From the IMG/VR virus record IMGVR_UViG_3300031419_000012: a DNA stretch of 64,000 nt; one strand, 5' to 3'. Under the pieces are notes generated by a model. The model ran no database searches. It worked only from the letters and a program-made list of their open reading frames with translations, and had not been told where the DNA came from. Positions 7,610-25,400 of the stretch are shown here, in pieces (position 1 is the stretch's first letter; every line of letters starts with the position of its first letter). This DNA is from a virus. A program made the translations under genes and the position numbers.

Positions 7610-8008
7610 TCAGCGATAGCTTTTCAAGAGGTGGCTGACCGTATTCGACCAGTTAGTTACGGTGTCACGGGCTAAGCGGTGCACAACCTGGCTGTAAATA
7701 TTAACCGGTAACGGTTCCCCGGCTTCATCCTCAAACACTAACCCTTCCGTCGTTCCTGCTTTACTCATATTCACGCTGTAATCAAACTTGCCTGTTGCCC
7801 CATACATGCCTACCTGCTGCTGAGCCTGCCATGTGAAGCGCACGCCACAACCTTTCCTGAGCTCAAACACAACGGTTCCTTCCACCAGCATGGCTGACTG
7901 CTTCTCACCTGTAGGCAATGACTTATTGCGGCACGACACCGATGTGACCTTGCAGTGATCTGCGCGCCAGCCCAGTAATTCCAGTCCTTTGAGCTTTACC
8001 GTTTCCAT
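7610..8008 (-). CDS. Hypothetical phage protein
   Basis: 132 aa ORF translationally coupled to the upstream gene; no recognised motif. Confidence 0.65.
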   Translation of the reverse strand: METVKLKGLELLGWRADHCKVTSVSCRNKSLPTGEKQSAMLVEGTVVFELRKGCGVRFTWQAQQQVGMYGATGKFDYSVNMSKAGTTEGLVFEDEAGEPLPVNIYSQVVHRLARDTVTNWSNTVSHLLKSYR

Positions 8009-8268
8009 TAAATCAGTCTCCAGTCGCTTGCCAGCAGGTCAGCGGTTACGGGTGTCCAGTCAGCCGTAGTCAGCTGCTCGGTATTAGTCAGTACAAACTG
8101 CGGCATACGCGTGACGGATGCCTGCGGATCGTGGTCAAAAAATCGCGCCGGCACGCCGTACATATCGGTGCCGTTCAGTGGGTGGCGTGTGGTGCCTCTG
8201 TTAAGGCGCAGATGCATACTCTCCCCATGCTTTACGCGCCACTTTAGCGCCGTCAGAGAGCCACACAT
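8008..8268 (-). CDS. Small protein with DUF2829/Tad2-like C-terminal motif
   Basis: Ends WTPVTADLLASDWRLI (W-x-P-x3-D-L-L-A-x-D-W). Start uncertain (8268 or 8217). Confidence 0.55.
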   Translation of the reverse strand: MCGSLTALKWRVKHGESMHLRLNRGTTRHPLNGTDMYGVPARFFDHDPQASVTRMPQFVLTNTEQLTTADWTPVTADLLASDWRLI

Positions 8269-8584
8269 GCGCCACGGCCATAGGTGCGCCCTCTTCTCTG
8301 AACCTCAGCATGCCTTCATCAATCAGCTGCTCGCTGCGCAGGATCAAATCGTTGAGTTTGAGCATGGCCAGACAGGTAGCGTGATTAAGCGACTCCCCGC
8401 GGGCGGTCATCGTCAGTGCGCCTTTGCTTACCGTGGCGGACCAGTCTGCAGTCATCTGTGACTGCTCCGTGACGACAAAGCCCAGGTACTCGAGAACGTT
8501 CAGCAGCGCCATGTAGTCGCCGGTATAGTTACCCTTTGCACCGGCAATCATGGCAATCGTCTCGTTTATTTGTTGATCGTTCAT
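8201..8584 (-). CDS. Hypothetical phage protein, possibly phage ABA-sandwich fold
   Basis: 127 aa in operon; WSATVS...ARGESLNHATCLAMLK pattern recalls ABA-sandwich domains (weak). Confidence 0.6.
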   Translation of the reverse strand: MNDQQINETIAMIAGAKGNYTGDYMALLNVLEYLGFVVTEQSQMTADWSATVSKGALTMTARGESLNHATCLAMLKLNDLILRSEQLIDEGMLRFREEGAPMAVAHVWLSDGAKVARKAWGEYASAP

Positions 8585-8589
8585 CGCTA

Positions 8590-8841
8590 TCAGTAACCCC
8601 GCTTTGTTTTGCGCTGGTGGGCGCTCTTTTTACGCTTCCGTATTGCCTGCCGTTTCCGTTCGCGCTGCTGCTGCGCTTCTTCTACGCTGGTGGCCAGCCG
8701 GTGTATTCCTTCCTCAACGGTCAGCTGCGGGCGCTCCGGCAGCTGCAGCGACCTGGCATGCAGCACGGGAACGGTTGGCGGCCGGCGTGCCAGCCAGGTG
8801 AGACTTCCCATTAATGCGCCCATCAGTGCGATCTTTTTCAT
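8590..8841 (-). CDS. Hypothetical protein with hydrophobic N-terminus and basic tail
   Basis: 83 aa, RBS AGAGAGAG, first gene after the RNA array. Confidence 0.55.
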   Translation of the reverse strand: MKKIALMGALMGSLTWLARRPPTVPVLHARSLQLPERPQLTVEEGIHRLATSVEEAQQQRERKRQAIRKRKKSAHQRKTKRGY

Positions 8842-8858
8842 GCTCTCTCTCTGTCGTG

Positions 8859-8949
8859 CAGGCGTGCAGAATCCCCGGCGATTGCCGGTGATTAAAATTC
8901 ACCTGATTAATTCCGGCGCCGGCGGCGCACGGGGATGGTATGACGCCTG
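8859..8949 (-). ncRNA. Cloverleaf-like structure with a Lys(UUU)-like stem-loop
   Basis: Outer stems CAGGCGT/ACGCCTG and ATCCCC/GGGGAT enclose three hairpins, one being GGTGA-ATTTTAA-TCACC (5 bp stem, 7-nt loop). Confidence 0.4.
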
Positions 8950-8981
8950 TCCCGGCGGCTGGCCGGGTGGCTATGTGGATA

Positions 8982-9083
8982 TTGTGCTGACCGGATTTGA
9001 ACCGGCGACCTCACGCTTGTCCCTTTCACCGCCCTCCGGGCTGAATAAAAGAGCGAACGCTGCTGCCACTGAGCTACAACACA
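8982..9083 (-). ncRNA. tRNA-like RNA with long hairpin inserted in the anticodon loop
   Basis: Acceptor TGTGTTG/CAGCACA, D-region TAGCTCAGTGGCAGCAGCG, variable loop AGGTC, T-arm GCCGG-TTCAAAT-CCGGT. The anticodon region is ~30 nt too long and contains CTTTTA; no CCA encoded. Confidence 0.8.
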
Positions 9084-9341
9084 ACGATAAAAGCCCGTCT
9101 GCCGGCGCTCTTACCTGTTGGGCTGTGTCAGCGAGCCACCAGCTGATCGATAAGCCAGCGGTGACCGGCAAACAGTCCGGCATTCAGCAGCAGGTGAAAC
9201 ATTACAAACTGCATCGCTCTGACTGTTTTGGTATACATGCTGGTGTCCATACTGCTTAAATCCTGATTGACTGACTGAATTGCTTAAATCATGCCTGAAT
9301 TTTCATGTCAGCGCTCATGCCTGCAAATCTGCTTTGCGTTA

Positions 9342-9897: not shown

Positions 9898-9981
9898 TGG
9901 CAGTAACGGCTGGATTTGAACCAGCGACCTTCCGTACTCCTGAGTAAAAGCCGGACGCTCGTGCCACTGAGCTACGTCACC
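9898..9981 (-). tRNA. Atypical tRNA-Lys(UUU)-like RNA with insertion 3' of the anticodon
   Basis: Acceptor GGTGACG/CGTTACT plus GCCA, D-arm GCTC-AGTGGCAC-GAGC, T-arm GCTGG-TTCAAAT-CCAGC. Anticodon region reads TCCGG-CTTTTA-CTCAGGAGT-ACGGA; 84 nt. Confidence 0.8.
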
Positions 9982-10014: not shown

Positions 10015-10151
10015 GCGATTGTTCAATGAGGCGGGAGTTGAACCCGCTTTGCCTTCGCAGCCCATCGCTGACCGCCTGCGTCAATTCGCCGGCAAGGCTT
10101 TCGCCCCGTGGACTCAGATCCACAACTCCTACGGTGTGTTAAAGCAATCAC
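10015..10151 (-). ncRNA. Enlarged tRNA-like RNA with canonical T-arm
   Basis: Closing stem GTGATTG/CAATCGC, T-arm GCGGG-TTCAACT-CCCGC (10031-10047), several internal hairpins. Confidence 0.55.
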
Positions 10152-10342: not shown

Positions 10343-10446
10343 ATGGGGGGCTGGTGCCTCCAGCTGTCCGATACGGAACCTACGGACGGGTATACCGTAC
10401 AGGAAATATTATTCCGCCCCGCGTGCGCATAGCCGCATTCCCCCAT
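10343..10446 (-). ncRNA. c4-like RNA
   Basis: ATGGGG/CCCCAT closing stem with GCTGG-AGGCA-CCAGC adjacent; begins GGGGAATGCGGCTATGCGCACGCGG, resembling the recalled c4 antisense RNA motif. Confidence 0.6.
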
Positions 10447-10692: not shown

Positions 10693-10756
10693 TGGTGCAG
10701 GTTGGCGGAATTGAACCGCCGACAGTGGAACACTCGACCGACTGAGCTAAACCTGC
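10693..10756 (-). ncRNA. tRNA-like RNA lacking the anticodon arm
   Basis: Perfect acceptor GCAGGTT/AACCTGC plus ACCA, D-arm GCTC-AGTCGGTC-GAGT, T-arm GGCGG-TTCAATT-CCGCC. Only 11 nt lie between D- and T-arm (about 23 expected); 64 nt. Confidence 0.85.
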
Positions 10757-10938: not shown

Positions 10939-10962
10939 AAAAAAGCCCGAAAACTATCGGGC
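10939..10962 (-). terminator. Intrinsic terminator in the leader of the RNA array
   Basis: GCCCGA-TAGTTT-TCGGGC followed by a T7 run on the minus strand. Confidence 0.65.
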
Positions 10963-11108: not shown

Positions 11109-11169
11109 AATGTACACAATGAGGAGATCTGAATCAATGAAAATCTAAGATATTTCTTAGATTTTCATT
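11109..11169 (-). promoter_or_regulatory. Sigma70 promoter with adjacent perfect palindromic operator
   Basis: TTGATT-17bp-TACATT with extended -10 TG; AATGAAAATCTAAGA-N4-TCTTAGATTTTCATT at 11136-11169 abuts the -35. Confidence 0.7.
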
Positions 11170-12547: not shown

Positions 12548-12565
12548 TCTAAGATTTTTCTTAGA
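12548..12565. promoter_or_regulatory. Palindromic operator overlapping a promoter
   Basis: TCTAAGA-TTTT-TCTTAGA, same core as 11136-11169, overlapping a TAGACA -35-like hexamer on the minus strand. Confidence 0.65.
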
Positions 12566-25141: not shown

Positions 25142-25400
25142 TTAAAGAAGCGTCACTACAGGAGGTTCCAATCTCCGGGTGGTGACGTTGACAGGGTTGG
25201 AACTACCGGCGCACAAGAAAACCGGCCTACCCGAAGGTAGCCCCACCAACGCCACCATAGATACGCCCGGAATAATCCGGACGTGGTAGCGCCGAAGGCA
25301 CTATGTGCCAGCTCTCATGCTTTTTCAGGGTTCCAATCCCGACCGCTGTTTTGCAGCGGCGCGCACACTATATCCGCCGCGCTGATAAATTCAATATGTC
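25142..25400 (-). promoter_or_regulatory. c4/P4-CI-type antisense attenuator leader with Ash/Icd-like leader peptide
   Basis: GATTGGAACC twice (25329-25338, 25164-25173) with a complementary GTTCCAACCC between (25194-25203). Encodes MVALVGLPSGRPVFLCAGSSNPVNVTT (25142-25258), an Ash-family-like motif. Confidence 0.65.

Follow-up and report, generated by a model that had tools for sequence, protein, structure and literature searches.

A conserved tRNA-shaped RNA with a long, covarying anticodon arm in Pantoea P1-like phage-plasmids

A tRNA body whose anticodon loop is replaced by additional paired sequence may be a precursor of a spliced tRNA, a gene in decay or an RNA with another use, and an element of this kind, here called E3, raises the question in a viral sequence of 64,000 nt (IMG/VR record IMGVR_UViG_3300031419_000012; the whole stretch is referred to as the window). 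A preliminary description had placed a tRNA body at 8982-9083; this was confirmed with exact ends, on the minus strand, and 35 nt were found to replace the anticodon loop (Table 1). The generic tRNA model of Rfam scores E3 at 38.7 bits (gathering score 29), there being no specific Rfam family for it, and the covariance model R1 gives 100 bits. ARAGORN does not call E3 at this position. Folded as a single sequence, E3 alone is modestly better than its shuffles (z -2.29).

The tRNA features found are the acceptor stem, the T-arm, the D-loop GG and U8/A14, together with an AGGUC variable region and a U3-A70 pair in the acceptor. The acceptor, the variable loop, the T-arm and the inserted sequence quoted in the preliminary description are thus all present. 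The D-region, described there as intact, has only a short conserved stem and a linker, and A14 and the equivalents of G18G19 are invariant despite the reduction. In the 27 orthologues the acceptor stem is 100% paired, with one compensatory change, in the outgroup, a pairing that is partly fixed by the search pattern. CCA is encoded in none of the 27; tRNA-Pro and tRNA-Ser of phage T4 likewise lack it (PMC11143913).

Table 1. Coordinates of E3, its parts and its neighbours in the window
Feature	Position	Strand	Details
E3, tRNA-shaped RNA	8982-9083	minus	102 nt; discriminator A at 8982; no encoded CCA
Acceptor, 5' strand	9077-9083	minus	pairs with 8983-8989; 7 bp; U1-A72
Shortened D-arm	9062-9074	minus	3-bp GCU/AGC stem, then 4-nt linker
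Lower anticodon-arm helix, 5' strand	9052-9057	minus	pairs with 9012-9017; 6 bp
Middle helix, 5' strand CUUUUA (former anticodon)	9046-9051	minus	pairs with 9023-9028
Terminal hairpin	9031-9041	minus	3-4 bp; loop sequence variable
5-nt bulge GGAC(A/G)	9018-9022	minus	3' strand; GGACA in window copy
T-arm	8990-9006	minus	GCCGG-UUCAAAU-CCGGU
RNase III-type hairpin	9080-9122	minus	3' arm overlaps acceptor 5' strand of E3
E2, sister tRNA-like RNA	9898-9981	minus	9 extra nt in anticodon loop; G73 and CCA
E1, tRNA-like RNA	10693-10756	minus	no anticodon arm; CCA; resembles P1 trnT
Promoter-like TTGATT-17-TACATT	11109-11169	minus	putative; abuts palindromic operator, heads island
Downstream 83-aa ORF, conserved	8590-8841	minus	
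Tad2-like (PF11195) anti-defence gene	8008-8584	minus	split by frameshift

The insertion point had been likened to the intron position 37/38 of tRNAs. As a present function, this would make E3 an intron-bearing pre-tRNA that is spliced by proteins at 37/38 into a working tRNA-Lys. A fold resembling the bulge-helix-bulge (BHB) can be drawn in the clade of the window, where excision leaves a Lys loop, and putative introns have been reported in tRNAs of Lak phages (PMC6784885). The BHB has a 3-nt bulge on either side of a 4-bp helix (PMC4090602), whereas the drawing comprises a 4-bp helix (CUUU/AGGG), a 3-nt ACA bulge and a 5' bulge of only 2 nt, and the third pair of this register is kept in only six of the 27 orthologues and broken in 21, without double changes. 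Every single excision was then scored for a canonical anticodon arm across the 27 orthologues: in 16 of them no excision yields one, and the rest have no anticodon in common. Excision at 37/38 leaves a Lys loop in 6/27 and U33 in 7/27, on a stem of 6 bp rather than the canonical 5. The EndA family (PF01974) was found in 0/75 Pantoea genomes and 0/4 phage-plasmid records, with positive controls detected, in keeping with the earlier remark that bacteria lack the endonuclease; RtcB was found in none of five sets (the nearest host, 97% complete, and four phage-plasmid records), and among the copies collected there was no insert-free allele. The insert also proved too short for self-splicing, as had been stated, being under 30 nt, with no Rfam intron match and no group I core (200 nt or more). 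Protein splicing into tRNA-Lys is extremely improbable on this evidence. The likeness to a 37/38 intron does not hold as a present function, no product being shared, but as history it may, and the case indicates that what convincingly resembles a 37/38 intron can arise by coincidence within one clade.

In archaeal BHB introns at 37/38 (PMC4090602) and in the Lak tRNAs (PMC6784885), extra sequence 3' of the anticodon pairs back, as it does in E3. E3 differs from the archaeal introns in that covariation gives a bulge of 5 nt, not 3, and in that there is no conserved product; for the Lak introns alleles with and without the insert are known, whereas E3 is found only with it. A tRNA with an apparently true BHB intron, after a CCA (Trp) anticodon, was observed elsewhere, in a large viral contig (L145, 3777-3902).

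The long paired arm of the preliminary description is upheld by covariation, with a different register. The second pair of the proposed UUCA/UGAA helix occurs in only six of the 27 orthologues, and this pairing is replaced by CUUU(UA) with (UG)AAAG, which leaves the 5-nt GGACA bulge; the GCCC/GGGC cap is supported as the terminal hairpin, separated from the middle helix by a variable internal loop. Double-sided changes were found at four of the six pairs of the lower helix. The middle helix spans 4-6 bp, with 107 of 108 cells paired in its first four pairs over the 27 orthologues, and its variants CUUU/AAAG, CUAU/AUAG, CCAU/AUGG and UCAU/GUGG are compensatory. The structure is 95.8% paired, against 30-51% in slid controls. 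By parsimony, the two arm helices underwent 19 events, of which 17 keep pairing (22% expected of random single changes) and six are double-sided, with the reservations that much of this covariation comes from a few deep branches, that the tree was made from E3 itself and that two double changes are possibly an alignment slip in the outgroup. The earlier argument that compensated pairing speaks against random decay is borne out in the homologues, which keep the paired arm and do not carry random unpaired insertions. Covariation fixes a long anticodon arm in which the former anticodon is paired and drifting. There is no 5-bp stem with a 7-nt loop and the anticodon is not conserved; as it is locked in a hairpin, E3 cannot read codons.

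The bulge is the invariant part of this arm: GGAC is found in 27/27 orthologues, though unpaired and between helices that vary, and it was not among the patterns used to find the copies. It is a candidate handle for protein binding. It could possibly pair, by 4 bp, with GUUC of the T-loop, which is likewise invariant. A CsrA/RsmA site (GGA) was also considered and set aside as weak, being a single site without the conserved ANGGA context.

Motif searches recovered 27 distinct orthologues of 99-102 nt, one copy each, in Pantoea P1-like phage-plasmids. Because these searches demanded the T-loop and the acceptor, loci were also fetched through flanking proteins. E3 is present in all 18 PmgS-anchored loci of the Pantoea clade that are of sufficient extent (three contigs that end early and one undetermined locus were left out) and in 19/19 loci fetched through the 83-aa ORF. 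Six loci of Citrobacter/Leclercia type, in which PmgS identity is 42%, lack it. The covariance model found single copies in five of 75 Pantoea genomes, the internal motif occurred in one of 401 family genomes, that one being Pantoea, and a scan of viral contigs for the hairpin pattern gave no match. No description of E3 was found by full-text search of the literature, a search outside which subscription journals mostly lie.

Identity of E3 to distant orthologues is 0.70-0.86, compared with about 0.38-0.65, mostly 0.45-0.55, at four-fold sites of the flanking genes. The rest of the surrounding non-coding island is about as conserved as E3; the outgroup plasmid is the exception, E3 alone being conspicuous there. 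In this most distant relative E3 retains 0.74 identity amid unrelated flanks at 0.42-0.60, the 83-aa ORF is missing and an intrinsic terminator comes next, as expected of a free RNA module. No conserved reading frame overlaps E3; two overlapping ORFs (8971-9183 minus, 8609-9259 plus) were rejected in view of the 99-102-nt lengths and of stops in the three sense frames of type-B copies.

These data also bear on the reading of E3 as a decaying pseudo-tRNA that is held by linkage alone. Its D-arm is irregular, the first T-stem pair is mismatched in about half of the copies, the window copy has a U.U mismatch inside the lower stem, and in one copy (G002) U8, A58 and one T-stem pair are gone while the arm is kept. 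G002 is the sole copy with core damage, and the T-loop is intact in 18 of the 19 protein-anchored copies. Against decay stand a conservation well above that of synonymous sites, the 17 pair-keeping events, the invariant bulge and the universal presence of E3 in the clade; the relic reading is very unlikely and already largely refuted. E3 is a real, conserved and uncatalogued element, a further form of tRNA mimicry and not a new intron class, and with high confidence it can be described as a conserved, unspliced, non-decoding RNA element.

The origin of E3 can be approached through its anticodon position. In a 5-bp register, 20 of the 27 orthologues, the outgroup among them, have CAU as the triplet; one has UAU and six have UUU, which is confined to the clade of the window; position 33 is C in 23. 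The variable loop and T-arm match a phage-plasmid tRNA(CAU) at 20-21 of 22 nt, the best match among 104 canonical tRNAs compared, excision at 37/38 still gives a canonical CAU arm in the outgroup E3, and tciA/tciB-like genes lie upstream of E3 in some orthologues. The CAU majority, the match to tRNA(CAU) and these neighbours make descent from a trnI-type gene probable. On sequence comparison, the tRNA(CAU) of the P1 trnI slot is the probable ancestor of E3, which may have arisen by an insertion directly 3' of the anticodon, most likely CAU; given such descent, the window copy would have come to look like a lysine tRNA late and by chance. The source of the U1-A72 acceptor is not trnI; the hairpin repeat has this acceptor too.

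The window is a P1-like phage-plasmid, with PmgS, Lpa, PacA/PacB, a DarB-like protein and C4 RNA, and its nearest relatives are Pantoea plasmids of 87-96 kb. E3 sits between pmgS and lpa in a non-coding island of 2.4 kb, together with E1 and E2. The "anticodon" of E2 is UUU in the window and UUA or UUG in orthologues, and E2 is present in only four of the 18 PmgS-anchored loci; ARAGORN labels it tRNA-Lys, and close orthologues are read as having a stop anticodon. The slot of E1 holds two exchangeable alleles, of 61 nt (trnT-like) and 70 nt, with CCA changed to UCA in one subclade. All three tRNA-family elements have altered anticodon arms, and no canonical tRNA is encoded in the complete Pantoea plasmids examined.

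Two further units were observed in the window, both on the minus strand. One, at 10344-10444, is cloverleaf-like and has a CCA end; its middle arm is branched, its T-like loop is non-standard, and it matches phage P1 over 27 nt; the other, at 10030-10047, is an exact 18-nt copy of the T-arm of host tmRNA within a longer structured unit. A "type C" family of tRNA-like RNAs of 124-128 nt (L016 3972-4096, L007 5801-5928, L157 4364-4488), in which the anticodon hairpin is short and capped and the variable region is giant, is fused to the same RNase III-type hairpin as E3 and occurs in enterobacterial prophages and P1-like plasmids. It was considered as a relative of E3, as the acceptor and slot are common to both; its arm is unlike that of E3, and as the 125-nt form scores 30 bits against about 100, the family was kept apart. 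The equivalent island of an Enterobacter phage-plasmid contains an RprA-like small RNA (L007 5394-5496; 63 bits, below the gathering score). A plasmid labelled Acinetobacter venetianus (CP060164.1) has an island of the Pantoea type, with scores identical to those of the Pantoea PSNIH1 plasmid; contamination or mislabelling is possible.

The putative promoter at the head of the island has hexamers conserved in 21/21 loci, in 19 of which the operator is also found; a sigma-70 scan gave nothing at its threshold, below which TTGATT-17-TACATT falls. The palindromic operator-like sequence occurs twice, at 11137-11169 and about 12548-12565, flanking pmgS on both sides. An intrinsic terminator (10945-10962) separates the putative promoter from E3, and on this model a transcript would have to read through it to reach E3.

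A long hairpin of the Qin dicF type lies directly 5' of E3, as judged by sequence and fold, and is conserved in the main-clade orthologues examined and weaker in the outgroup. In the dicBF transcript of Qin, an RNase III cut makes the 190-nt DicF precursor (bioRxiv 10.1101/2023.04.14.536235), and when 190 nt are counted back from the dicF end, this cut falls within a hairpin whose 3' arm is similar. The predicted pair probability of the E3 acceptor is 0.0 in the uncut precursor and 0.89 with an 11-nt leader. The acceptor being predicted to stay blocked until a cut is made, this fold and the Qin precedent suggest the order RNase III, RNase P, 3' trimming. E3 would be transcribed within a repressor-controlled island between pmgS and lpa; RNase III would cleave the upstream hairpin and so release the 5' strand of the acceptor; acceptor, T-arm and D/T elbow, which make up the top half of the tRNA, would fold next; RNase P would generate the 5' end, and 3' trimming would halt at the acceptor, CCA possibly being added. 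In the resulting stable RNA, the long anticodon arm would offer the GGAC(A/G) bulge to a protein partner, as in the YrlA RNAs. We give about an even chance to this reading of E3 as an unspliced, non-decoding tRNA mimic that is released as a stable RNA and displays a protein-binding arm. One core-damaged copy, an island conserved about as well as E3, the terminator upstream and the failure to find a partner protein such as Ro60/TROVE count against this reading.

The same processing could be an end in itself. E3 would then be a cis-only signal for processing or punctuation, similar to a t-element, whose cuts determine where the orf83/tad2-like mRNA starts and how stable it is, the released RNA being inert. 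Its fusion with an RNase III-type hairpin, the missing CCA and the position of the 83-aa ORF, always about 140 nt downstream of E3 in the main clade, agree with such a role. A cutting signal alone, however, would not obviously need a covarying arm or an invariant bulge, both of which it leaves unexplained, and in the outgroup E3 precedes a terminator without the ORF; these points favour a released mimic, and we consider the cis-only role rather unlikely. The armless E1 further suggests that the tRNA-like units of the island need no such arm merely for tRNA shape.

The comparable island of P1 (NC_005856) comprises dicF-like/trnA/trnT/tci with the same hairpins, and tciABC stands before trnI (tRNA-Ile2 CAU); it lies before ban in P1 and between pmgS and lpa in Pantoea. 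The three tRNAs of P1 are canonical 76-mers with CCA, whereas E3 has 102 nt, a paired and drifting anticodon and no CCA. The Qin dicBF site releases an Hfq-dependent sRNA precursor, while the hairpin of E3 is predicted to release a tRNA-shaped RNA. A tRNA shape used for maturation is common to E3, the C4 RNA of P1/P7, the t-elements of plant mitochondria (PMC1920247) and the tRNA-like domain of tmRNA, from all of which E3 differs by a full cloverleaf with a lengthened arm. E3 is also unlike tmRNA in having U3-A70 rather than G3.U70 and no tag frame, and ARAGORN finds no tmRNA in the window.

A C4-like role, as an antisense or guide RNA on a tRNA-like scaffold, gains some interest from a C4 RNA in the same genome and from the fact that C4 is a substrate of RNase P (PMC11143913). 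The C4 antisense RNA of the window (25175-25373, minus strand), with its a1/b1 target, is ordinary for P1-like phages. E3, unlike C4, has no antisense loops: its loop sequences vary freely, no conserved loop complementary to another site was found within the window, and the best complement there is one 12-mer, which is at chance level. An antisense function is highly improbable.

The Y RNAs known as YrlA, found in bacteria and phages (Chen et al. 2014, PMC4201824), resemble E3 in combining a tRNA module with a long stem, which in YrlA binds protein. The RNA of Mycobacterium smegmatis is processed by RNase P and has CCA added (PMC4201824). The GNCGAA motif is missing from the E3 alignment, there is no Rfam Yrl match, E3 ends at an ordinary acceptor stem, and no Ro60/TROVE gene was found in the host or the plasmid. 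By analogy, YrlA would be closest to E3 in its working, though E3 does not qualify as a YrlA RNA.

E3 could be a decoy or inhibitor of host nucleases that target tRNAs (PrrC, AriB of PARIS, OLD, retron PtuAB), titrating them with its elbow and an uncleavable arm without an anticodon. Its location would suit this role: it neighbours a Tad2-like gene in an accessory island, at the site that canonical tRNAs occupy in P1 and in Enterobacter/Leclercia relatives. The altered anticodon arms of E1, E2 and E3 in plasmids without a canonical tRNA would suit it as well. Compared with an intact orthologue of 192 aa, the Tad2-like gene itself lacks 2 nt and is thereby split, through either a mutation or a sequencing error. 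In published screens, however, phage tRNAs counter OLD, PARIS and retron-Eco7 by restoring decoding (PMC12445682), no precedent for a non-decoding decoy was found in the literature, and the sequence of the anticodon arm, which such nucleases read, is not conserved. The decoy is decidedly unlikely. A broader form, in which the tRNA genes of the clade have turned into non-decoding mimics and E3 inhibits in trans a host defence protein that handles or cleaves tRNA, through its elbow and the GGAC bulge, is speculative and in our estimate unlikely.

Phage tRNAs are usually explained by codon supply or by the replacement of host tRNAs cut by nucleases, and both explanations require a working anticodon. 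The present clade gave up decoding in all of its tRNA-family genes and selection retained them, an indication that the tRNA shape has a third use. For such a use E3 is a suitable test case, being small and single-copy, located on complete plasmids of cultured Pantoea strains, with CP009882 and NZ_CP141613 as examples, and available as a natural allelic series with one invariant bulge. If the trans-inhibitor reading is true, the phage would be protected without decoding being restored.
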